From Porphyridium purpureum (taxonomy: Eukaryota): a stretch of DNA of 64,000 bases. The notes under the pieces are model-generated. The model saw only the letters and a list, made by a program, of their open reading frames with translations. It was not told the origin of the DNA and did no database searches. A program made the position numbers and the translations under genes. The stretch covers positions 558,001 to 622,000 of the forward strand of contig VRMN01000003.1 of the NCBI GenBank assembly GCA_008690995.1, read 5' to 3'. The first letter of the stretch is position 1. Every line of letters starts with the position of its first letter. Below, piece after piece: positions 4,074-44,102 of the stretch.

Positions 4074-4907
4074 CTACGATGGAAGCAGCTCGTTTCGTCG
4101 CAGCGCGACGCACAGGCTCTCGAAAATCTCGTCGGGGCTGCCCTCAGAAGGCACTTCGTTCAGAATGCCTTGCGCGCTGTACTTCTGGATAACCGGCATC
4201 GATGTGTCCAGAAAGGTGCGGAAGCGCGACTCGATGACATCGCTGCAGTCGTCCACCCGCCCACTCGTTTTGCCGCGACCGAGAAGGCGCTCACGCATCG
4301 TCTCAATCGAGCACGAGAAGTACACCACCAAATCGATCTCGCCAATCCGCTTCTCATACTCCACGGCCTGATCAAATGCGCGCGGGAAGCCGTCAATCAG
4401 AATGCCCGGCGTGCCCTCAGCCGTTTTCTGGATCTCCTTGTCCAGCAGCTCAATGGTGACGTATCCTGGCACAATATTGCCACCGTCGATGATTTCCTTG
4501 ATCATCCGACCCAGCTCTGAGTCCCGTTTCGCCTCGGCCCGCAACAGCTCGCCGGCACAAATTTGCTTCCATCCATATTTCTCCACTAGCATTTCACACT
4601 GAGTGCCTTTGCCGCTTCCAGGGCCGCCGAGCACAAAGACGATAGGTCGCTTTGGCGCACTGAAACGGGCATGTTCCCCGTCTATGTTCATCGCGACCGC
4701 AGCTGCGCGGTTGGACAAAGGCGCGTGGCTTCGCGCTACTTCCAGTTCACACCGCAGTGAGGAAGCTGTGCGTCGTGCAAAACGATACTGCCGTGCTGAC
4801 CTGTACGAACGGCACGTGGCCTGGCGTGAAAACGCGTAGGAAGCGCATGCTGAGGCGACGCATTGCGGACACGCACGCATGCCGGCGGCTCCAGCAAATC
4901 CGAGCAT
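4074..4907 (-). CDS. UMP-CMP/adenylate kinase family protein with N-terminal transit peptide
   Basis: VLGGPGSGKGTQC P-loop, LIDGFPR, GKTSGRVDD; Ser/Arg/Ala-rich N-terminal extension. Confidence 0.9.
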   Translation of the reverse strand: MLGFAGAAGMRACPQCVASACASYAFSRQATCRSYRSARQYRFARRTASSLRCELEVARSHAPLSNRAAAVAMNIDGEHARFSAPKRPIVFVLGGPGSGKGTQCEMLVEKYGWKQICAGELLRAEAKRDSELGRMIKEIIDGGNIVPGYVTIELLDKEIQKTAEGTPGILIDGFPRAFDQAVEYEKRIGEIDLVVYFSCSIETMRERLLGRGKTSGRVDDCSDVIESRFRTFLDTSMPVIQKYSAQGILNEVPSEGSPDEIFESLCVALRRNELLPS

Positions 4908-5255
4908 GGCGGAAGCGCCTGCTATATATGCCTACTCGAAAGACTTTTCTCGTTAGCGCGGCAGACGTCGAACGTTTCCGAGCCGCACTTCGTACCAATA
5001 TGCGGCACGCATTCGCACCCAGAATGCACATGGCGCCGCCGAGCACAACCACCGAGCTGAGGAGGTACTGTGTGTCGCGCGCTGTACTCTTGCGGTGGTC
5101 TCACGTGTGTGGTTTAACGGGTTATTGGCTTAAAGGTTTCATCTCTGGTTTTGGTTAAGAGTCGGGGTAGTGCGTTGGACGCTCAGGACAGAGGGCGGCG
5201 GCGTGCAAAGCTTCGTCGCGGACGGGAAACCATCGAGGGCTGGAGCTGTCGTGAG

Positions 5256-6314
5256 ATGGAGCCGACAAAGGCGCCGTGGGCAGCGCCTGCTAGCGTGCCA
5301 CCGACAGTGCACCCGGCGGTGCTGGAAAGCATGAGAAGGCGTCAGGAGCAAGGAGTGGCGGCGATTGGCGATGGCTCTCAAGCGGACCCGCACGAAACCG
5401 AGCCGTACCCCGGTTTGCGGAAACGGATCTTCGCAGATGCGCAGCTCGACAAACTGCTCGCCTCTGAGCTGTTTCAGGATCTCTGGGAGTTCCTGCTCGA
5501 ACTGAACGACAGCGTCAGGAACGTTCCGGGCTCTTCCCCGGACATTACTTGCTCGCCTTTTGTGACCAAGCTCGTGGGCATGTTTGCGGAAATTGCGACA
5601 TGGACGGCGGACATCCCTCCTGACAGTGGCCCGAAAAGGTTTGGAAACCCCTCGTTCCGGCTTTGGTGGCAAAGGCTTCGCGAAAGGGATGGCGGAATGT
5701 TAAGCGCCATTTTACCCGAAGGCACCGATGTCGCGGTGGTTGAGCAACTCTGTGCATACTTGGAACAGTCTTTTGGAAATCGAACGCGTATAGACTACGG
5801 AAGTGGCCATGAGGCGAGCTTCTTAGTCTTTCTGTTTTGCCTCAGGAACCTCGGCTTTGTCAGTCCCGACGACAACAAGGCCTTGGTCCTTCGAGTGTTT
5901 TGGGATTACCTTTCGATCACGCATAAATTACAAGACGTGTACATGCTGGAACCTGCGGGCTCTCACGGAGTGTGGGGACTAGATGATTACGCGTTCCTTC
6001 CATTCCTGTGGGGCTCCAGCCAGCTTCGTGACAACGTGCGTATTCCGGCGAATGCCATCCTCAACGAGAGTGTCGTCGAGACATACAAGGACGAATACAT
6101 CTACATGAAAGCGATCGCATTCATCCGACATGTCAAGAAAGGACCGTTCTTCGAGCATTCGCCCATGCTGACAGATATCAGTCGCCTACCCGGTGGCTGG
6201 CCCAAGATCAACGAGGGACTTTTGAAAATGTACAGGGCAGAGGTGTGGGGAAAGCGCGTAGTGATTCAGCATCTTGTCTTTGGGACGTTGTTTTTCTTTC
6301 CAGAAGAGATGTAG
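5256..6314 (+). CDS. PTPA: PP2A phosphatase activator (PTPA/RRD family)
   Basis: RFGNPSFRLW, SFGNRTRIDYGSGHE, LEPAGSHGVWGLDDY, KGPFFEHSPML. Confidence 0.95.
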   Translation: MEPTKAPWAAPASVPPTVHPAVLESMRRRQEQGVAAIGDGSQADPHETEPYPGLRKRIFADAQLDKLLASELFQDLWEFLLELNDSVRNVPGSSPDITCSPFVTKLVGMFAEIATWTADIPPDSGPKRFGNPSFRLWWQRLRERDGGMLSAILPEGTDVAVVEQLCAYLEQSFGNRTRIDYGSGHEASFLVFLFCLRNLGFVSPDDNKALVLRVFWDYLSITHKLQDVYMLEPAGSHGVWGLDDYAFLPFLWGSSQLRDNVRIPANAILNESVVETYKDEYIYMKAIAFIRHVKKGPFFEHSPMLTDISRLPGGWPKINEGLLKMYRAEVWGKRVVIQHLVFGTLFFFPEEM

Positions 6315-27047: not shown

Positions 27048-29249
27048 ATGGCACCAAAACGAGCGGCACCCGTGCCCGGGTTGGGCGCGCCAAGGAAGCG
27101 GGCGAACAAGCAGGACGTCCGCATGCAACAGAGCAAGCTCAAGTTTCGGTCCCCGGCAGAGTTTTTCGCGGAGAACAAGAACATTGCTGGGTTCGATAAT
27201 GCCGGCAAGTCGCTGTATACAACAGTCAGGGAGTTTGTAGAGAATGGGCTCGATGCTGCCGAGGCAGTGCACGTTTTGCCGGACATCTTGATTAAGATCG
27301 AGGAGCTGTCTGTTCATATGTACCAGCAGCTCACCAAGACATCGCACCAGGAAAAGGTGCTGGATCCTACGCTGTATAAGGAACACGTCGAGCAGAAAAG
27401 GGCCAAAGGTATTGCTGCCAAAAATAAGAAGAAGGCAGGATCGCAAATGCAGGAGAAGGACGAAGTTGATGATACCTTAAGTGATGATGTGCCACTCAGA
27501 GCCGGCAGCAAAAGTGGGACGGCGGCGGCCGCGACCGCGGGGGACGCAGACGCAGCTTACTTACCTAGTAACATGTTTCGCATAACTGTGACAGACAATG
27601 GGTCCGGCATGCCACACGAATCGATCCCGCAAATGATGGGTCGCGTGCTGGCGGGAACCAAGTACTGCGTCCGCCAGAACCGTGGCAAGTTTGGGCTGGG
27701 TTCGAAAATGGCATTGATTTGGAGCAAGATGAGTACAGGGCTTCCTATTGAAATTTGGTCGCAACAGCGCGGCCAGAAGCAGTACTCGCATGTGATCTTG
27801 GACATAGATATCACGAACAACGCGCCGAATGTGATAGAGCAAACGCGTCATTCGGCGAACGAGTCTACCCCTTTCTTTCCGTCCGGGCACGGCACGACTG
27901 TGAGTTTGATAATCGAAGGGAACTGGACTTCTTATCGCTCCAAAATTGTACAGTACACGCGACAAATGGCTGTGATTACTCCCTACGCCGAATTTAAGCT
28001 TCAATTTATCGCCGGTTCGCGAATGGCGGAGCAGGACTCGCGTTCTTTTTCGGTTGTCTTCCAGCGACGTGCCGACAAAATGCCGCCACAAGCTCAGGAA
28101 GTGAAGCATCATCCTAGTTCGGTAAATCAGCTGCTCATCAAGCAGCTCATTGACCAACTCAGCGAAAGCAAGCAACAATCGATGTGCACTGTTGATTTTC
28201 TGCACAAGGAGTTTAGCAATATTGACCGCAAGCTCGCGGAAAGGTTGGGTCTGGAGCTTGGTGAGGAATTGGCTGACAAATGTTTGGAGGCGCTCGATGT
28301 GGATGATATCCGCCGGCTCGATACGCTGCTCAAAGCCGCACACTTTGACCCACCCGACGGCAATTGCCTGAGTCCTGCTGGTGAGTACAACTTGAGGCTG
28401 GGAGTTCTCAAGGAGATCCGACCCGAGCTGATCGCGACACACGCAGAACCTGCCGAGGCATTCGAGGGACATCCATTCATCGTGGAGGTAGCGGTATCGC
28501 TAGGAGGTGTTTCCATAAAACCTGGCATTACAGTGCACCGCTTTGCCAACCGCATTCCGCTGCTTTTTGAAGCAGGCAACGACGTGGTGACTAAGACTGT
28601 GCTCAAAAATATTCCTTGGAGCACGTATAAGATCTCGACGACCAACGATCGCATCGGTGTTTTTGTGAGTATCGTGAGTACAAAGATTCCCTTCAAGGGT
28701 ACGGGCAAGGAGTACATTGGCGATGACGCCACAGAGATCCGGCAATGCGTGCGGCGCGCTATCATGCAATGCTGTATTCAGCTGAGAAGCAAGATCAGCC
28801 GCCGGAGCGAACTAAAGGACCAAGCTGACCGCAGGCGCAATCTGATCAAGTATGTGCCAAACGTGGCGCGCGCCCTGAGCAGTCTGTGGAACGCAGTATC
28901 AATAGACGCTTCGACGCAGGAGGATGAAGACCTTCAGGCGCCAGATATTCGTAAGTGGGTGCAGACACCTCCGACCGAGAAGCAGCTCGCTCAGCAGCTG
29001 CTACGCAGTGTAGAGAAGCAGGATCTTGCGGACGCGTTGGAGCAGCAGCAGGCGGTAGCTGCGGACGGCATTGGCGGGCGCGGGAGAACGAAGGACCTGG
29101 CAGAGGCCATACTTTTGCTCCCCGTGCCGCGCGCCACGTCGAACGCGCTATTCGCGTGCTTTCCAACCTCTGTTGATGTGGACGGGAAGGAGAAACCAGG
29201 CGGCAGCTGTAGCGTATTGCTTCTCAAGCGCCTCGCTGTTGGTTTGTGA
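27048..29249 (+). CDS. TOP6B: DNA topoisomerase VI subunit B
   Basis: SPAEFFAENKNIAGFDN, REFVENGLDA, DNGSGM, RGKFGLGSKMAL, RFANRIPLLFE, STKIPFKGTGKEYI. Confidence 0.97.
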   Translation: MAPKRAAPVPGLGAPRKRANKQDVRMQQSKLKFRSPAEFFAENKNIAGFDNAGKSLYTTVREFVENGLDAAEAVHVLPDILIKIEELSVHMYQQLTKTSHQEKVLDPTLYKEHVEQKRAKGIAAKNKKKAGSQMQEKDEVDDTLSDDVPLRAGSKSGTAAAATAGDADAAYLPSNMFRITVTDNGSGMPHESIPQMMGRVLAGTKYCVRQNRGKFGLGSKMALIWSKMSTGLPIEIWSQQRGQKQYSHVILDIDITNNAPNVIEQTRHSANESTPFFPSGHGTTVSLIIEGNWTSYRSKIVQYTRQMAVITPYAEFKLQFIAGSRMAEQDSRSFSVVFQRRADKMPPQAQEVKHHPSSVNQLLIKQLIDQLSESKQQSMCTVDFLHKEFSNIDRKLAERLGLELGEELADKCLEALDVDDIRRLDTLLKAAHFDPPDGNCLSPAGEYNLRLGVLKEIRPELIATHAEPAEAFEGHPFIVEVAVSLGGVSIKPGITVHRFANRIPLLFEAGNDVVTKTVLKNIPWSTYKISTTNDRIGVFVSIVSTKIPFKGTGKEYIGDDATEIRQCVRRAIMQCCIQLRSKISRRSELKDQADRRRNLIKYVPNVARALSSLWNAVSIDASTQEDEDLQAPDIRKWVQTPPTEKQLAQQLLRSVEKQDLADALEQQQAVAADGIGGRGRTKDLAEAILLLPVPRATSNALFACFPTSVDVDGKEKPGGSCSVLLLKRLAVGL

Positions 29250-32251: not shown

Positions 32252-34099
32252 TTAATCCAATAGGTGCTGCCTACGATCCTGTTCCTTCAGAATGATGAAG
32301 CGGAAAACTTCATAAATCACCAAGCTAAAAGTAATCAAAAGCGGTGCGATCAAAAGGCCCTGCTGTCCAAATACAGAAAGTCCCAAAACCGAAGCAACTG
32401 TCAGCAGCTCATAGTTCAGGATACTCTTGCCAACTACCATGCGCTCTTGCACTGTTTCTAGATAATCTTCTTGATCTGACGCGTAAAACATGTGCACAAG
32501 AGGAAGAGCAGCAAATTCGACCCAGCGGCGCTGCGCAATAAGCTGCGGCGCGGAAAAACACAATGAAAATACCCAGGCAGGCGGCATGAAAGGTAACACC
32601 TGTGACAGTCCGGCCAACAATGCTGCGATAAATTCAAAGTTCAGCCCCAGGGCAGAAAATGAAATCCAAACAAACGCAACGTGCAGCATAAAGAAGCGCA
32701 TACTCACCCAGAAGATCGCCGAGATTGCACTGCGAAGATCTCTCTCGATCATATTATTCAAGCTCTTTGTAGGCAGCGGCAACATGTTCGTCAGGTAGCT
32801 GATCGCGCTGTCCTCGCTTCGAAGGAACAGAAACAGGAAGGCAAGGAAACTCCCTATCCAGCTGAGCGAGCTGATCACCTCGACGAGTTTGGAAAACCCC
32901 TTGGCGAGAAGTGTAAGACCCTTGCCAGTGTACTCCCTGGCCATGTCAAGGTACTGCTCAACATTCCCAAGCCGTTCTTTTGCGCTACCGATCAACTCCT
33001 GCACTTCTCCGACTGACCTTGGTACGTACGGTTGAAGGTTCTCATACAACTCCCGCGCCTTGTCTTTCAACAGTTCCGCATCCATCAGGGCGAGGAGTTC
33101 CGTAGCATTTGTCTGCATTCCGCCCAGCTCTGAGCCACTTGCGTTTCCACTTTGTAGCGCCAAGGGAGAGCTTGGATCTCTACCGAGTGCGGATTGCAGG
33201 CCCGCCTGCACATATGGCATCACGTCGACGCCAGTCACATTCCCAACCTGAGAGGCAATCCTTTCAATATTATGCACGTTGTCAACTACGTACGTCTGGG
33301 CCTTGTCCTGTACTTCGCCCATTTTTGCTTGTATCCATTCAACTTTGCTCGGGTCGTCCTGCACAATACGAATCAAGTACTGGGTTCCGTCTCGCGCACC
33401 GGACACGACATCGATGGCACTACCAGTCAGGAAAAGCCCAAGAAAGATGACGGCAAAACCTACAAAGGAGAGCATCGTGAGGCCCGATGCCGCGCTGTTG
33501 GGATCCACCATATGAAGCATGACCAAAATGCGCGTCACAATGACGCCGGCGGCAAGCATGGTGCCGTAGATCACGAGAACAGACACGAAGAAGGCAAAAA
33601 GTTTTGGCTGGCGGACGGCCAGAAGTATGATCACTGCCAACAGCATCAGGTGGTTTTTCCGTGACACCCAGCCAGACTTGGTCCAGCGAGCGTATTCATC
33701 GCCGTCTTCTAGGGCGCTGATACGCTTAGTTGCAGCAGTGCCGTCATCCTTTTCCCTATCATCGTCCTGCTTCTCGCGCAACTCCTCCGCGGCACACGAC
33801 GCGCTACGTGTCTTGGCGGTCTGTCTGTCGCGCTGCGATTTCGCCACCGCCGGAGCAATGACCATCAGGAACCCGTCCCGGATGCGGCGCATCGATGTAC
33901 TGACGACAGCTGCGACGAGTAGCGGAAGCATGTACGGCTCAAAGAGCGTGTAGTTATACCAGAGGATCCCGATCAGCCCGGCGCCCAGCGCGATGCCCAG
34001 CGCAACATCCAGAGCTGCCGACGACGCGCTCCAGCTCACCACATGGCGCACCAACAAGTCCAGCCCGTCATCGCGATCGCGCCCTGCCTTCCCAACCAT
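32252..34099 (-). CDS. AI-2E/TMEM245-like multi-pass membrane protein
   Basis: Many TM helices; C-terminal LTVASVLGLSVFGQQGLLIAPLLI matches the AI-2E family end motif. Confidence 0.8.
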   Translation of the reverse strand: MVGKAGRDRDDGLDLLVRHVVSWSASSAALDVALGIALGAGLIGILWYNYTLFEPYMLPLLVAAVVSTSMRRIRDGFLMVIAPAVAKSQRDRQTAKTRSASCAAEELREKQDDDREKDDGTAATKRISALEDGDEYARWTKSGWVSRKNHLMLLAVIILLAVRQPKLFAFFVSVLVIYGTMLAAGVIVTRILVMLHMVDPNSAASGLTMLSFVGFAVIFLGLFLTGSAIDVVSGARDGTQYLIRIVQDDPSKVEWIQAKMGEVQDKAQTYVVDNVHNIERIASQVGNVTGVDVMPYVQAGLQSALGRDPSSPLALQSGNASGSELGGMQTNATELLALMDAELLKDKARELYENLQPYVPRSVGEVQELIGSAKERLGNVEQYLDMAREYTGKGLTLLAKGFSKLVEVISSLSWIGSFLAFLFLFLRSEDSAISYLTNMLPLPTKSLNNMIERDLRSAISAIFWVSMRFFMLHVAFVWISFSALGLNFEFIAALLAGLSQVLPFMPPAWVFSLCFSAPQLIAQRRWVEFAALPLVHMFYASDQEDYLETVQERMVVGKSILNYELLTVASVLGLSVFGQQGLLIAPLLITFSLVIYEVFRFIILKEQDRRQHLLD

Positions 34100-34764
34100 C
34101 GTCGCGAGCGCCCCCTCCCACCTTCTCGGTGCACCCGGCTGCCACCCGCACAGCAGCAGCGTGAGACTCGCGCGCACGCGGTTGCGTTGGCTGCAACGGA
34201 GCGTCTTCAAAGTTTGCGTACAGCGGCTGAACACCCGTCGGGCCTATCCTGCGTAGCGCACGCGCAAAGGAGCGCGTTGGCGACCCGAATGTTTGTCGCA
34301 GCTGGCCAAGATGCCAGGAAGGCAGCGCGTACACTCGAAACACACGGCACAAGATCTCACATGTTCTGGGTACGCCCGAAATGATCGCGCCGCTCTATGC
34401 GACACTCGCTTGCCTAATCTGCATTCTCGCCGGTCGCACGGCGTCCGAGCACCTTTGTGAATCGCTTGGCGACACACGGACCGCCTCGGCGTCCGCCTTG
34501 ACGCGCCAGAAGCCATGCAAGCGTGTGTCGGCCCGCGCTGGACCTACTGCAGCGGACATGCCTGCAGTGCCGCCGCGGGCGGAGGCACCGTTAGCCGAGC
34601 TCGCACTTGACGAGGCCCATAGTGCGCACGTGTTCAAGAACAGCCGGCCCACACACCGCATGAACCAGTACCCCGTCAGCGCACAGCAGCGTGCGCTTTG
34701 TACGACAAGAGTGCTACTTCCGTATCTGAACCCTGCGCTCGACACGGACGACCTTCGCTTCCTG

Positions 34765-35213
34765 ATGAAGGGGATTTGCGCGTTTGGAGTGCGCATGGCG
34801 CGTAGTCATGCGTTGACTGTGCACATAATGGCTCAAAGCGTGAAGCAGTTTGGGATCTGAGCGTGTCCGTTCTGGGTCTGCAATAGTCGCTTGCACCAGA
34901 AATTCGTACGTCAAGGGAGAGTTGATCAAAGAGATTGCGTGCGCGACTCCGGCTGGTGTATCTGGGACCGGAAATCACCGACGATCATCTGGATGTTTTC
35001 ATATTTGTACACTCAACAGATGCGCAGGGAGCCGAAGGCGTTGTCCCATTTCTAGACTGCCATCCGTTGGAGAAGGACGGCGTCCGTGTGCTGGTCAACT
35101 CTGATTTCGTACCGCCTGCGAGCGACACTGCGGTCACCGGTGTGTAGACATTCATCTGTTCCGCCTTCCACAGTTGGCGCCAACCTGAATTCTGGAACCG
35201 GACATACCTGTAA
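34765..35213 (+). pseudogene. Degenerate IS607-family serine recombinase (TnpA) remnant
   Basis: AIVACTRNS..GELIKEI resembles YARVSS..DL.RQ; LRLVYLGPEITDD resembles L..YP..EII.D; LEKDGVRVLV; ends RTYL* at TAA 35211-35213. Confidence 0.45.
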
Positions 35214-36286
35214 TGACTCCCTTCCGCCCAGTCTTTGAGCGGCCACCCTCTACGAAGCACTTGCGCGTGAGGGAGCAAGGCACTCTACGGTCCAGTTTTT
35301 CGAAGGATGTCCGAAGAATCGACCATCGCACGTCGTATGACCCTTCGGTAACATTCCATCAAGATGAGGCCATAAAGGCTCAAACGCAGAGAACTGGAGC
35401 TTCGTTGAAGCCTCATCGTAACGTGTCGCTATACGTAAAAGCAGCGCCAGCGCCCGCAGCGGCGCGGGGGGAAATGATTTGATCCGCATCATGTGGCCGT
35501 CCGTCCAAATGCCGGTTTCTTGTCGATTTAATGCTCCATGGCCGTCATCGCGGCCGCAGCCGCAAGAGGCCCAGGACAGAGGCCACTTTCCTGCGAATCT
35601 GCATGTCGTTGTGATGGACCCGGGCGTGCATACATTCGAGACGTTATTTGACCTGAGCCGGTGTCGCGCACTACCGATGAAGGCAACACATGGCGCATGG
35701 TCTAGCTATGCGTTGGCCTGGATGAGCTGACGTTCAGTACTGATGCAGCGGCTAACACGCACGAGTTATGTACGCTGTGTCGCAGCGCGTTGTGAGCACG
35801 CAAACGCATTCACAAGCTTGTGAATCAGGTGCGCGAGCAGCTGGCCCCGTTTTTCCTGTGCATGGACGACGTCAGCATCTGCCCGCGTTTGATGTGACCA
35901 AATTGACTCTTGCATGTGGCCACAACATCGGTTCCAAACCTGTGCGTCAGATGAACTGGCGGGCCCGCTACCGCTGTCAGACGCGGCTTGCGCTCAAGGT
36001 GCGTTGGGCCGGCTTGAAGCTAGTGCTGATCAAGGAGGCGCGCGTGCAAAAGACTTGCAGCGCCTACGGGACCGTCAAGGCCAACATAACCGGGGCTAAC
36101 GTCTCCACGCATGGCTCTGCTGCCTGCAGTGCTACAGCCATGAAGCTGGACGCCATCGGCGCCAAGAACACTTTAAAATGGGAACTTCCGAGAGTTGCAC
36201 ACCCGGGTATAGCCATGGGAACAACTGCCAGAGCATTTCAGGCCATTGCGAAAAATTCACACCTTCTGCACCTGGGACGCCTCTGA
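35213..36286 (+). pseudogene. Fanzor2/TnpB-family RNA-guided endonuclease pseudogene
   Basis: RuvC-I VVVMDPGVHTFET (D at 35617-35619); LCVGLDEL..L*ARKRIHKLVNQVREQLAPFF; LPAFDV; IKEARVQKTCS (E at 36035-36037); KLDAIGAKNTL (D at 36149-36151); internal stops and frameshifts. Confidence 0.85.
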
Positions 36287-36541
36287 GGAGCTCGAAGAAG
36301 GGAGCTATGGGACGCGAGACCACTATCCATATGTTCACGCCAGCTCTTTCAGCCTTTTACGTCCGTTGAATTTTTATATAGATTCTAAGGGTCTTCAGGT
36401 TTTCGAAACGTAGATTGGGTGACAAACAAGCGCGACCATCCCGTCGCCTCCATCACACGACAAAACTTCCACGCCCTCGTCCCCTTGAGTTGGCCTTGCC
36501 TCATTCAAGTCGTCGTGAGAGACCCGCATTAATAGATCACC

Positions 36542-39500
36542 TTACGACTTATATTTAGACATGATTTTTTCTTCGTCCACGGACGCCTCGCTGCTCGACT
36601 CACTTTCTGATTCGACGCTCCTGCTCTTTCTGCCTTCCGTCTCCACGGCTTTCTTACTCTTCTCTCGGTTCTTGTCGCCATGCTCTTTGTCTGCCTTCGA
36701 TTCCGATCTTGAAGAATCAGCTCGACTGTCCTTGGTCACGATCCTCTCCTCGTTCGCAGAGGTCTCACTGCCAGTGTCACTTTTTGACTCGGCGCTTTTA
36801 ATCGTCTTGTTCTTTTTGTTCATCTTTTCAGCAGCTTTCTTACTCTTCTTTCGGTCCTTGCCACCATGCTCTTTGTCTCGCTCCGATTCCGATCCTGAAG
36901 AATCGGCTCGACTGTATTTGGCCATAATCTTCTCCTCATGGGCTGGGGTCTCACTATCCGAAGCGCTTTCAGCACTTGATGAAGTAACAGTGGCAGCCCC
37001 TTTCTGTGCACTTCTCTTTCTTTTGATATTCTCGGAAAATTCATCCCCACTCGACGCCTTTGTTGAGTTCGATGTTTGACGAGCAGGCCCACTTGAATGC
37101 GACGTTCCTCCGGTCCCCTTTTCCTTCATCCTCCTATCTTCGCTCGACGCTTCGTGCTCCTGCTCTAGAACAGGAGCTGACGATTCTGCTCTTCTCTCCT
37201 GCTCCTTGATGTCTTCAAATGTGATCCCTGGTCCGTCAAACTCATGAAGCAAAGAAGAGTCTGGTGATGCCCGAGACTCAAGCTCAGCGGGTGCGGACGC
37301 TGCAGAACTATCACTATGTCCTTTCGCGAATGCGAGCGCTGGCGTCAGAAGATCTCGAACTCGAAATGCTTTATGCACATGCTCTTCGCTGCCGAGCTTT
37401 GAAACATCCTGATCACGTCCAGAAAAGGATCCGCTCTGAAGCTGTCCCTCACCATGGCGACCTTCTTCGTGTCTTGAACCACTCCCGTTTTGCGACTTTT
37501 CTCCGTCGCCTGTGCTTCTCTCTCGCGTATCGCTCAAAGCCAAAGCTGGTTGAGCTTCTTGCTCTTTGGCTTCGTCCTGCGCCACAACAACCGCCAAATC
37601 CTTTTGCGCACTATCACGATCGGCTTCAGATTCCTTACTTTTGGCTGCGCGTGACTCCAAAGTATCTGCGCCTCGAAGTCTTTCACTTTGACTTCCCTTT
37701 TCATCTGTGCTGCTTCCTGGCGAGATTGCATCATCAGGTTTTTTCTTGTTGTTGTCCTTTTCAGATTCATCCTCGCTTCTGGTCGTATCCTGATCTTGCT
37801 TACGCTGCTGTATATCTTCGAATGTCGTGGCAGGCTGTTGTGCTTGTTCCTTTTCCTCCTGTATGCGTACTTCTGCAGGGACGTCCCCTCCCGAGCGACC
37901 GCTTCCTGCAGTAGAGTTCGGGCTTTGCATGTCATTCCCATCAAAGTTAGTCTGAGGGTCCTCTTCCATATCACGCGGTGAGTCACCATTGTTGGACGAG
38001 TGACTGTGACTCATTCCGCTGTAGCTTCGGACGATCTCTGTTTTCCCAGAATGAATCAAAAAGAAAGCATGCTCTGTGGCGTACGTAATTGCTTCGAACT
38101 CGGCAGAGTTCTCGCCGTGCTTCCGCTTGGCCTCATCTAGAACGAGACTCAGATGGTATTCAACGCGCTGAATACGTGACGAAAGCCGCATCTTCTTGGC
38201 TCCCTGCACGAGAGCGACTTCCTGATTGACACGTCGTCCGACGGCACCAAGCATGTACTGAAGCCGTCTCGCTACGTACACATCAGGCACGCCATACTTC
38301 CGTAGCGGATGGGCGACACTGTCAATTAAAGCATTGAAAGACGGACGAGGAATCGCAACAAGAACTCGGAAATCGCCGTGTTTTGCGCGAATGATTCTTG
38401 GATCGCAGCGCCGGGCCGCAATGTCAGATAAAAGCCTCTCGTGCCGGTCCAGGGCCTCGGTCGCCGTCGTTGGGTCATTGACGCCGGGACTCAGCGCCTT
38501 CAGCGCCACGTCGGTAATTTGATGCAAACCAAATTCCACATCCTGTAAAATAGAGCGATTAAAACCATATCGAAAGCATGCGCGCACGTCCTTCTCCAGC
38601 CGCCTTCGATACGATCTACTAAGTGCTTCCGTGCTCTTGCCAGGAAACCACAGCCAAGCCATCAGAGTACCAAATGTTATGTACTCACCGATCCGCGGTC
38701 GCAATCTGATCACGAAGCCTGACGCGTTTGCCATGCGTGTCAAGTACACTTCACTGACACTTCTCAAATAGCCGCTCTTCTCTGACACGATCTGAAGCGC
38801 CCCTGGTGGCACCATGGGAAGCCCAATGATCTCGTCCAATTGGTACGGACCATGCTTTTCGGATCTTTCGAGATCCTGCTCGAACATGGTCAACTTGTTG
38901 AGCGAGTCGTGAATCTGGGGAATCGTAGCAAGCGTATCGGTAGCCACATTATCCATCAGGACCGATACGTTCATGCTCGTCACGACGTAGTGTAAATAGT
39001 ATACCAAACCGAGAACAACGGCAACCACATGGATCACCATCACATTGACGGCCACGGATGGCACAAAGGGCATTTCGGTATCAGTTTGCGTGCACATGAC
39101 GCCTGCATAGGAGTACGCGAAAGTGCCCAAGAAAATACAGAGCACAATTTTAGTGGGTCGCCGGCTCATCAAACCTGTGAGTAAGCGTGCGGAGTATGTC
39201 ACGCCGGCCACTTGAAATGCAACAATGCACAACGAAAAGACGGTTCCTGTGAGACTGATGACGAAACCTCCGACGTACGTGAAGATGGTAAGTGCGTCGT
39301 CCGCTGTTCCGTTGAACCACCACTTGTACCCATTGCCTGTTTGTATATTACCCTCTCCGACGGACGCGATGAGCGCGCCTACAATGAAATTGACTGTGAT
39401 TGAGATGATCGGTAGCGTCCAGAGCGAATTCTCAAAGTACTCCAAGGCGCGAGTCAACCATAACGTAACTCGTGCACGCCACACACTCGCCTTTCGCTGC

Positions 39501-39709
39501 TTAGAAGATGCTTCGTCCGTATCAACGCTGTCTCGGCATTGTGTCTGTGCAGAGCCGTGCAGCCGCGCATTCGATCCCTGTTCGGACTCAACCGCTCCTT
39601 CTCTCCGGGCAGCAGCCAACGGGTTCCCGGTCCCATAGAGTTCGGCGCGAAATCCTGCCTCCCACGTTTCCTTCTTGGTCAGCGTTCGCTTCACGGCATC
39701 GTTCTCCAT
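36542..39709 (-). CDS. DUF2254-family membrane protein with long charged C-terminal tail
   Basis: TVFSLCIVAFQVAGVTYSARLL, LCIFLGTFAYS, SGYLRSV, QDVEFGLHQITDVALKALSPGVNDPTTA. Confidence 0.9.
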   Translation of the reverse strand: MENDAVKRTLTKKETWEAGFRAELYGTGNPLAAARREGAVESEQGSNARLHGSAQTQCRDSVDTDEASSKQRKASVWRARVTLWLTRALEYFENSLWTLPIISITVNFIVGALIASVGEGNIQTGNGYKWWFNGTADDALTIFTYVGGFVISLTGTVFSLCIVAFQVAGVTYSARLLTGLMSRRPTKIVLCIFLGTFAYSYAGVMCTQTDTEMPFVPSVAVNVMVIHVVAVVLGLVYYLHYVVTSMNVSVLMDNVATDTLATIPQIHDSLNKLTMFEQDLERSEKHGPYQLDEIIGLPMVPPGALQIVSEKSGYLRSVSEVYLTRMANASGFVIRLRPRIGEYITFGTLMAWLWFPGKSTEALSRSYRRRLEKDVRACFRYGFNRSILQDVEFGLHQITDVALKALSPGVNDPTTATEALDRHERLLSDIAARRCDPRIIRAKHGDFRVLVAIPRPSFNALIDSVAHPLRKYGVPDVYVARRLQYMLGAVGRRVNQEVALVQGAKKMRLSSRIQRVEYHLSLVLDEAKRKHGENSAEFEAITYATEHAFFLIHSGKTEIVRSYSGMSHSHSSNNGDSPRDMEEDPQTNFDGNDMQSPNSTAGSGRSGGDVPAEVRIQEEKEQAQQPATTFEDIQQRKQDQDTTRSEDESEKDNNKKKPDDAISPGSSTDEKGSQSERLRGADTLESRAAKSKESEADRDSAQKDLAVVVAQDEAKEQEAQPALALSDTRERSTGDGEKSQNGSGSRHEEGRHGEGQLQSGSFSGRDQDVSKLGSEEHVHKAFRVRDLLTPALAFAKGHSDSSAASAPAELESRASPDSSLLHEFDGPGITFEDIKEQERRAESSAPVLEQEHEASSEDRRMKEKGTGGTSHSSGPARQTSNSTKASSGDEFSENIKRKRSAQKGAATVTSSSAESASDSETPAHEEKIMAKYSRADSSGSESERDKEHGGKDRKKSKKAAEKMNKKNKTIKSAESKSDTGSETSANEERIVTKDSRADSSRSESKADKEHGDKNREKSKKAVETEGRKSRSVESESESSSEASVDEEKIMSKYKS
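36545..36976 (-). repeat. Coding tandem repeat of about 59-62 aa (about 2.4 copies)
   Basis: EEKIMAKYSRADSSGSES..DKEHG.K..KSKKA / EERIVTKDSRADSSRSES..DKEHG.K..KSKKA / EEKIMSKYKS. Confidence 0.9.
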
Positions 39710-42270: not shown

Positions 42271-43989
42271 TCAATTTCTTTTCCTTGCGCACACATCCTT
42301 CACCGCGGAGTGCAAAGTATTGTAAGCCGCTTGGACCCCTGCGTCTTCATGTTCTTTCATTTGCTCGAACGTCGACAAGAACATGCCTTCCATACCTTTT
42401 CGATTCATGAAGCCAGATGCCATCAGCATGAGAGCGGTGCAGCGAGTCACCATATCACGCACCAGCGGTGGGCAATCCCTCTGGGTATCCCATGCCTCCG
42501 ACTTTGTTTCTCGGTCAATCCGACCGAGGTACTCCATGCAAGACCGTACCAGCGCACCAGCAAATTCCATTGTGTACTGAGTATTACCTTGCGCTCCTCT
42601 TCTGTCCGGTTTGGCCACGTCTTGATCGGCATTTTCTGTGCTTTCTAATTCCAGTTTTCGACGAACAAATAAGCCGGTGCCAGCGGTACCGTTTCCAGTT
42701 AGCTGATGAAAGGATTCCAGAACAAAGTCGCTCATATATGAGCCCGCCACCAAAGACGACTCGCGAACTTTCGTCATTGCGGCTTCCAACTGAGCATTGA
42801 CGAGCGTTAGCTCTTCCACATGCTGGGCCACTACGGGTAGATATGCGTGGCGCTGGTCGGGTGCCATCTTCGCGGCATTATCATTCAAAAGCCTCAATGC
42901 GTCCGTCCTTTCCCGCTTTTGATCCAGCAGCCGCATCACCTTTGCCATTAGAAGAAGGTCGAGAGTAAACATATTGCTCCCCGGACTCTCTTTCTCCGAC
43001 GTCTCCATCCATTTCAACCATGTCCGTTTGTTTCCTGTGGGATCCTTGACAACACCCTTCGTCTCCTGAATCTCTTCTAGAGACCAGATGTAGGTGTCTA
43101 TCACCTCTTCGACAGTCTGCATAGAAAGGGACAGAGAAGCTGCACCGTCAGACGACCGACGTTGTACGCGATAAACAAGAGCTTTCTTGTCATTTCCCAG
43201 AGAAACGCCAGAAACAAGCTTTCCGCACCGTAAAACGCCGTCACAATCTAGATAAAGAACACGCGAATCCACAAATAGAAGACTTGAGCAATGAAATGCA
43301 GTTTCAAGCCGTTCTTGCATGGTATGCCGTCTCCTCAAGTCCGATTCCTGGAGCACGGCAGTGATTAACTTTCTTAAATGATCGCGCCTATCTGCCAGCA
43401 CTGCTCTTTGTTCTTTCATGAATGCACGCGAGAAGCGTCTAGGATAGGCTCCACCTTCTAGCTCGCATAATCCTAGCTTAAGCAGCTTCCACAGCGACCG
43501 AGGAAGAATCAAAGAAAGTGATCCGTCCATGATTCCTGCAATGGGTCCGCCTTTTCGTTCCCATGCTTGGCCCGGGCTGCGTGCCACCATTGGAGCCGCC
43601 GCCGTCATCGTACTGAAATTGTCGTGCTGGGCTTTCCGCACGCCGACAAATCCCTTATCAGTGCCTGAGCCCTCGTCGTTCCCGGGATTCCCAGCGTCCT
43701 CGGCAAACTTCGTCTGGGCACGCATTAGCCCCGTAAGCGCCGGTACATGATCGACTAGCAAGCGTAAGAATTCAGAGTTAGATGGATCAAAAAACGCTGC
43801 GCGGTCAAGAGTGCTGCCGAACCACTCAGCGCGCATCCATCTTTCAAACGGGGTCTCATTTCCGCCCTCATTCCTTTTCCAAAATCTCCTCGCTGGCACC
43901 ATGGGCTTGCGCGCTCGCTTTCTCACGCTTGCAGACTCATGCTCATGCGTCTCTTTGCGCTTCCCGTGAACCCGCATCCCTTCTTCCAT
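42271..43989 (-). CDS. LIN9/ALWAYS EARLY-like DREAM subunit (DIRP domain)
   Basis: WMRAEWFGSTLDRAAF..NSEF, LPRSLWKLLK, PRRFSRAFMKEQRAVL match DIRP; alternative start 44079. Confidence 0.75.
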   Translation of the reverse strand: MEEGMRVHGKRKETHEHESASVRKRARKPMVPARRFWKRNEGGNETPFERWMRAEWFGSTLDRAAFFDPSNSEFLRLLVDHVPALTGLMRAQTKFAEDAGNPGNDEGSGTDKGFVGVRKAQHDNFSTMTAAAPMVARSPGQAWERKGGPIAGIMDGSLSLILPRSLWKLLKLGLCELEGGAYPRRFSRAFMKEQRAVLADRRDHLRKLITAVLQESDLRRRHTMQERLETAFHCSSLLFVDSRVLYLDCDGVLRCGKLVSGVSLGNDKKALVYRVQRRSSDGAASLSLSMQTVEEVIDTYIWSLEEIQETKGVVKDPTGNKRTWLKWMETSEKESPGSNMFTLDLLLMAKVMRLLDQKRERTDALRLLNDNAAKMAPDQRHAYLPVVAQHVEELTLVNAQLEAAMTKVRESSLVAGSYMSDFVLESFHQLTGNGTAGTGLFVRRKLELESTENADQDVAKPDRRGAQGNTQYTMEFAGALVRSCMEYLGRIDRETKSEAWDTQRDCPPLVRDMVTRCTALMLMASGFMNRKGMEGMFLSTFEQMKEHEDAGVQAAYNTLHSAVKDVCARKRN

Positions 43990-44102
43990 CACGCCCGACC
44001 ACCGGCTCTCTCGACTGCGGATGGGCTCTCTGGCTACAGGAGGCGGCCTCTTGAACACGGAAACATTTTCAGATATCATGATTTACAAGCCATTAACTGG
44101 AA

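Follow-up and report, generated by a model that had tools for sequence, protein, structure and literature searches.

The window analysed here, that is, the whole 64-kb stretch of DNA, has 55% GC, is compact and gene-dense with few introns, and encodes Topo VI-B. The interval of interest measures 2.4 kb and separates two minus-strand genes, one of the AI-2E family and one of the DUF2254 family. The following features were located in and around this gap:

32255..34099, minus strand: host gene of the AI-2E transporter family (Pfam PF01594, E=1.6e-12)
34381..34857, plus strand: P0130, a catalogued orphan ORF of 159 aa (exact sequence in NCBI/UniRef/nr/eukprot; one-member cluster)
34770..34885, plus strand: weak resemblance to the HTH and wing of IS607 TnpA, not significant, in a frame different from that of the fragment quoted in an earlier note on this DNA
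34971..35006, plus strand: weak resemblance to TnpA helix E, not significant; a Fanzor REC motif also aligns there
35211..35215, plus strand: TAATG stop/start overlap (TAA 35211-35213, ATG 35213-35215), likely coincidental
35549..35596, plus strand: probable short Fanzor2 pre-RuvC basic motif (ungapped profile score 37.1 against a null maximum of 22.2)
35596..36175, plus strand: Fanzor2 pseudogene, RuvC/bridge-helix/zinc-finger half (Pfam, NCBIfam, subclade HMM, frameshift DP and nhmmer)
36545..39709, minus strand: DUF2254 host gene (Pfam PF10011, E=1e-80), whose 3' end is duplicated along with the relic

The proteins of the flanking genes are present in eukaryote protein collections, and the genome around the relic is probably an algal nuclear genome. 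Contigs from 6 public runs covering this copy of the locus showed 0 indels over 34100-35720 and scattered substitutions only; hence the frame breaks in this stretch are not assembly errors. The DUF2254 family is mostly bacterial, and the C-terminal half of the one found here is a long charged low-complexity tail containing an internal 186-nt repeat (36619-36955). Two further genes were observed elsewhere in the window, namely an intronless gene for DNA topoisomerase VI subunit B at 27048-29246 (Pfam E 1e-51; archaeal Topo VI-B in PDB, E 3e-79) and, on the minus strand at 42274-44079, a gene for a DIRP/LIN9-like protein (Pfam PF06584, E 7e-7) which is likely a DREAM-complex subunit.

The RuvC half at 35596-36175 is a real Fanzor2 sequence and was seen by every method used. 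It was matched by the Pfam TNB model (E=9e-4) and by NCBIfam guided_TnpB (E=5.5e-4), and a subclade HMM recognised its three consecutive frame pieces at E=6e-7, 2e-8 and 4e-17. The frameshift DP scored 256, where the null reached at most 52, and nhmmer gave E=2e-12. The reading frame is broken by frameshifts near 35680 and 35875 and by stops at 35703 and 35793, and the half retains 38-43% of the score of an intact element. The RuvC-I aspartate (35617), the shifted RuvC-II glutamate (36035) and the RuvC-III aspartate (36149) are all kept. The DPG motif together with a shifted glutamate was described as a signature by Yoon et al. (10.1101/2023.08.09.552727); in the relic the DPG at 35617 and the C-terminally shifted glutamate at 36035 are both aligned to the consensus. 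The zinc finger, given by Bao and Jurka as a Fanzor2 feature of the form TS-x-x-C4 followed by RD (PMC3627910), has decayed: the TS, two of the four cysteines and the arginine are gone, and the aspartate, the position and the spacing remain. A complete Fanzor2 ORF with its WED/REC half is absent, the N-terminal half being undetectable and the remainder carrying the 2 frameshifts and 2 stops.

The reference loci used for placement were IS607-Fanzor2 elements from viral and metagenome contigs, together with 120 of 911 related proteins. In a FastTree phylogeny of the RuvC halves, which took in 72 of 144 sequences and had no Fanzor1 as outgroup, the relic sits on a long branch and joins P0070 and the TnpA-bearing locus L076 (0.84) in a clade at 0.94. 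It nests among IS607-associated Fanzor2/pro-Fanzor sequences, with P0070, L076, P0093 and P0106, and L076, the closest relative having DNA context, carries a TnpA. The tree placement and the HMM matches bear out the earlier note in assigning the downstream gene to the IS607 clade of Fanzor2. This holds from about 35550-35596 onwards but not for the ORF opened by the ATG at 35213, which up to its stop at 35480 gave no significant Fanzor match (241 and 148 of 1404 null segments scored as well). A homologue search using the RuvC fragment and a metagenome scan with the window's own fragment found nothing, and searches of PDB, plasmids and PHROGs were empty or spurious. Among the related loci proposed, L001 (a tail-fibre repeat), L002 (a match of 12 residues) and six of the seven in a further set were rejected as spurious. 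As regards a guide RNA, Rfam gave nothing at E<=5 across 34000-36700 and the folding of 36170-36400 was no better than that of shuffles (z=+0.79), both being weak tests for a decayed copy.

Detectable Fanzor homology ends at about 35550-35600, and upstream of it nothing significant was found. The basic motif at 35549-35596 probably belongs to Fanzor2 as judged from sequence comparison. Its mean score over the 15 nearest relatives was matched by 4 of 975 null segments, and in gapped DP across a wide region it was not significant (11 of 81 null segments). If it is a Fanzor2 piece, about 68 codons would have been deleted ahead of RuvC-I.

Another copy of the block is present in all four runs compared, whereas self-BLAST found none inside the 64-kb window. 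In three of the four runs this second copy matches 34897 or 34989 to about 35080 and resumes only at 35730 or 35906. All four runs carry it on through RuvC as far as the 3' end of the DUF2254 gene, with contigs covering 36419/36481-36900. The two copies are 77-84% identical upstream, 80-81% identical across RuvC and 85-89% identical at the DUF2254 end, and copies were sought with a limit of at least 80% identity, which more diverged ones would escape. Depth in run X1 was similar for the second copy (292) and the main copy (222-260); as the RNA status of the runs is presumed, depth is uninformative on expression. Of the 23 differences listed for 35938-36101, 8 are at first, 6 at second and 9 at third codon positions (hand count), as expected for neutral decay. 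Since the second copy spans the 3' end of a host gene, segmental duplication rather than transposition or independent insertion is indicated, and the stretch 34897-35080, being common to both copies, is older than the duplication. For the DUF2254 gene itself, each of the four runs thus shows a further sequence of 85-89% identity, either a paralogue or a partial duplicate.

The stretch 34765-35215 had been taken in the earlier note for the remnant of an IS607-type serine recombinase. The peptides quoted for it are indeed present, with KGICAFGVRMAR at 34768-34803, AIVACTRNS at 34880-34906, GELIKEI at 34916-34936, LRLVYLGPEITDD at 34947-34985, LEKDGVRVLV at 35067-35096 and RTYL at 35199-35210, the first of these fragments being the end of P0130. 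They lie in order just upstream of the Fanzor, but not in one reading frame. The pieces are spread over three frames, with an in-frame TAG at 35145 between the last two, so that a stitched gene would need two frameshifts and one read-through. No profile of Resolvase or IS607 TnpA matched: Pfam and NCBIfam found no resolvase, HTH or IS607 match in the fragments or in six read-through frames of 34300-35600, and custom HMMs built from 37 and 87 Fanzor2-linked TnpAs found none in the upstream region. The TnpA of L075, used as positive control, was detected at E=8e-20 and 4e-43 (PF00239 and NF033518).

TnpA was further aligned to the DNA by frameshift-tolerant, deletion-tolerant and end-to-end methods and by a codon model of neutral decay for which the RuvC half served as calibration, with other segments of the window serving as null. 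The frameshift-tolerant alignment was equalled by 72 of 84 null segments, the alignment with free internal deletions by 59, 38 and 66 of 138, and the neutral-decay model by 27-57 of 138, while the end-to-end (glocal) alignment gave z values of 0.06 and 0.04. The TnpA of L076 itself was equalled by 91 and 101 of 138 null segments, the five nearest TnpAs stood at null level, and DNA alignment with the 5' halves of four elements was equalled by 7-92 of 95. Scaled by the ratio retained in the RuvC half, which is approximate, an equally decayed TnpA would be expected to score about 197-310, whereas the region scores 35-38 and the null maximum is 55-64. The catalytic-domain profile was reached by 53 of 248 null segments, and the best alignments of the region contain none of the catalytic serine, GSG and DRL motifs of the 87-sequence consensus. 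All whole-domain tests, though amply powered, are at chance level and the catalytic motif is absent; the assignment of 34765-35215 to TnpA is unsupported.

In an amended form of the earlier reading, 34770-35010 would be a TnpA cut by internal deletions to its HTH, a mid piece and helix E, with the TAATG still not being the native junction. Three weak TnpA-like pieces do occur in the fitting order, at 34770-34885, at 34886-34939 (the mid piece) and at 34971-35006. The first is matched pairwise by the TnpA of L097 at 39% over 38 aa; its best pairwise score was reached by 5 of 120 null segments and its top-10 mean by 1 of 120, this being one of six frame/family tests. The helix-E-only test was reached by 2 of 248 null segments, and the frame of the HTH-like and helix-E-like pieces would place the long open frame at +1, as is usual in the family. 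The expectation of a TnpA is also sound, as the earlier note had held: 64 of 80 metagenome loci carry one, and so does L076. Against this, the chain of pieces is not significant (38-66 of 138 null segments), the HTH-only profile was equalled by 38 of 248 with its best match not at 34770-34885, and the whole profile was equalled by 44-51 of 138 at the helix-E piece. TnpA blocks below threshold numbered 6 of 36 and 8 of 46, against about 9 and about 11 expected, and a false TnpA block of equal strength was found inside the RuvC gene. The deletions would moreover have to strip exactly the three best-conserved motifs. As many tests were applied to one region, isolated p-values of 0.01-0.05 are to be expected, and a reduced TnpA is considered unlikely.

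The TAATG, with its TAA overlapping the ATG by one base, is present as reported, yet the coupling of a recombinase to the Fanzor that was read into it is not supported. One-base stop/start overlaps of this kind number 100 on the plus strand of the window and 4 within 34700-35600. The junction was compared with 102 of 114 loci that have both genes, namely those in which the Fanzor ORF reaches 380 aa or more, with duplicates included and the first Met as start. The Fanzor lies in the +1 frame at 100 of these, and the overlap exceeds 10 nt in 99 (>100 nt in 93 and 11-100 nt in 6), is 8 nt in 1 and is replaced by a gap in 2, so that a 1-nt overlap occurs in none; the TAATG has a +2 frame and 1 nt. 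The distance from the ATG at 35213 to the RuvC-I aspartate is about 135 codons, against at least 190 in 48 of 50 relatives. The TAATG also falls in the stretch missing from the second copy and is likely a coincidence. A placement of the TAATG inside a Fanzor REC motif was tried and failed against nulls.

The upstream DNA could instead be the decayed and rearranged N-terminal half of the Fanzor itself (overprinted extension, WED and REC), with the TAATG inside its coding sequence. Intact relatives need 190-470 codons before RuvC-I, which would reach back to 34200-35050; the Fanzor of L075 aligns nearly without gaps over 53 aa at 35032-35190 (21 of 792 null segments), and REC-like pieces can be seen at 34950, 35285 and 35363. 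This reading is nevertheless very unlikely, since at least four by-eye mappings are mutually exclusive and the profiles stand at null level (9-55 of 138; z of -0.5 to -1; 28 and 50 of 88 for the nearest clade), where a score of about 410-430 would be expected if the half were present. Three other by-eye Fanzor mappings of the upstream DNA failed against nulls.

Over 34231-35235 the frame of P0130 has two stops (34858 and 35053) against 13 and 10 in the other frames. Both stops are variable, that at 34858 among runs and that at 35053 by its loss from the second copy (read by hand). Runs X1, X8 and X19 have G in place of A at 34860, which changes the P0130 stop TGA to TGG (Trp); with this allele the ORF would reach 35052. 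The excess of open frame is modest, being attained in 90 of 3000 simulations for an interval picked after looking, and the six alleles in it (4 amino-acid changes, 1 silent and 1 stop change) look neutral. The host-codon score favours this frame at 34250-34850. P0130 and the open frame have no family in Pfam or NCBIfam, and the AlphaFold model of P0130 (pLDDT 42) is too poor for a fold search. The ESM Atlas gave no usable match for two ORFs of the open frame, and nothing was found in a viral scan with P0130 or in a homologue search with a 95-aa upstream piece, which covered longer proteins only. The best reading of the 1.3 kb upstream is therefore an orphan ORF that shares the frame of 34381-34857, has no relation to the Fanzor element and is probably in decay.

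The same open frame could be regarded as the upstream gene of a non-IS607 element that carried the Fanzor2 (a Fanzor2*, as Yoon et al. use the term). Capture of Fanzor2 by non-IS607 transposons has been described (10.1101/2023.08.09.552727), and the scarce and variable stops, the favourable codon score and the presence of 34897-35080 in the second copy would fit such a carrier. No transposase family was matched in six frames upstream, however, and no convincing terminal inverted repeat was found in 34000-37000. Just one other copy was seen at 80% likeness or above, and it includes the 3' end of the host gene. The carrier is accordingly rated as highly doubtful, and there is a similarly slim chance that an undescribed mobile element captured the Fanzor2 in an algal nuclear genome, with the orphan gene in the open frame 34231-35235 as upstream partner in place of IS607 TnpA, intact copies being still to be found. 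A Y1/HUH transposase suggested by eye was rejected, having no Pfam/NCBIfam match and its putative first histidine changed in the second copy.

The reading preferred here, with a probability of roughly 0.63, is that 35596-36175 is what is left of a Fanzor2, its RuvC half in broken form, likely derived from a giant-virus-type IS607 element minus its front, with no significant recombinase match in 34765-35215 and a TAATG that is likely coincidental. An IS607-Fanzor2 element would have been inserted between two host genes, its source probably being a giant virus; the reference locus L005 is a giant-virus MAG contig. The tnpA and the WED/REC half may then have been lost through deletion, and the element would never have been maintained, decaying neutrally with a best-fit extra divergence of about 0.25 substitutions per site. 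A later duplication would have taken in both the block and the adjoining 3' end of DUF2254. At present the locus can encode neither a nuclease nor a recombinase. The prokaryote- or virus-style two-gene IS607 cassette proposed for this nuclear genome is not found: TnpA is undetected, the junction is atypical and the Fanzor is broken; the relic is an ordinary 5'-truncated dead Fanzor2, for which the recombinase and the coupling are unsupported.

Serine recombinases were reported by Bao and Jurka in some Fanzor2 elements (PMC3627910). Like the IS607-Fanzor2 elements (ISvMimi, ISvNY2A_1 and ACa-1 in PMC3627910 and 10.1101/2023.08.09.552727; L076, L075, L005 and P0070 here), the relic nests in this clade and shows the DPG in RuvC-I, the C-terminally shifted glutamate, a zinc-finger region and the RuvC-III aspartate. 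Unlike them, it is detectable in its RuvC half only, has no TnpA, no WED/REC and no long +1 overlap, and its frame is broken. Gilbert and Cordaux described 80 IS607-like sequences in 14 species of Amoebozoa, Ascomycetes, Basidiomycetes and Stramenopiles, and most eukaryotic IS607-like copies were single-ORF or fragments (PMC3673617). The relic, with ORFB only, stops and frameshifts, resembles these degenerate nuclear ORFA/ORFB fragments, whereas its host, judging by the compact intron-poor genes, Topo VI-B and 55% GC, is probably a unicellular red alga, a group outside that list. A Fanzor1 family of Cyanidioschyzon merolae, CMe-1A (PMC3627910), is likewise decayed and red-algal, with copies about 80% identical and no TIRs; it is classed as a Fanzor1 and has about 150 copies, whereas the relic is a Fanzor2 with two copies seen. 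The Fanzor2* of Chloropicon primus and molluscs (10.1101/2023.08.09.552727) also lack TnpA in a nuclear genome, but are intact with TIRs and TSDs, none of which were found at the relic.

Rhodophyta are among the Fanzor hosts of Jiang et al. (PMC10530073). In the portion of the literature on Fanzor in red algae and Porphyridium that was covered, this locus is undescribed, although accession-indexed supplement tables could contain it, and no red-algal Fanzor2 appears in the Fanzor literature covered, including supplement rows. In the part of Table S5 of PMC10711439 that was covered, two Porphyridium rows and one Gracilaria row labelled "Fanzor" look by eye unrelated, being cysteine-rich/zinc-finger proteins caught by a regular expression. 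As fragmented IS607/Fanzor2 copies in nuclear genomes are already known (PMC3673617), the relic matters little in itself, and being dead it offers neither an enzyme nor a guide RNA. Should the host prove to be a unicellular red alga, a lineage would be added to the Fanzor2 record, and the relic would be a hint that elements of giant-virus type once reached this lineage. An intact two-gene cassette, which is absent here, would matter more as a sign of IS607 activity in the nucleus.

Two observations were also made on the reference loci. In L005, L006, L008, L011, L075, L076 and others, the Fanzor frame continues upstream without a stop through most of tnpA (+1, often for 330-725 nt). The Fanzor would thereby gain an overprinted extension at its N-terminus, in which FW and WP motifs recur; the literature search found no paper devoted to this extension. 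In L006, the minus-strand ORF at 4457-5884 adjoins an intact IS607-Fanzor2 element and by eye is like a giant-virus major capsid protein.
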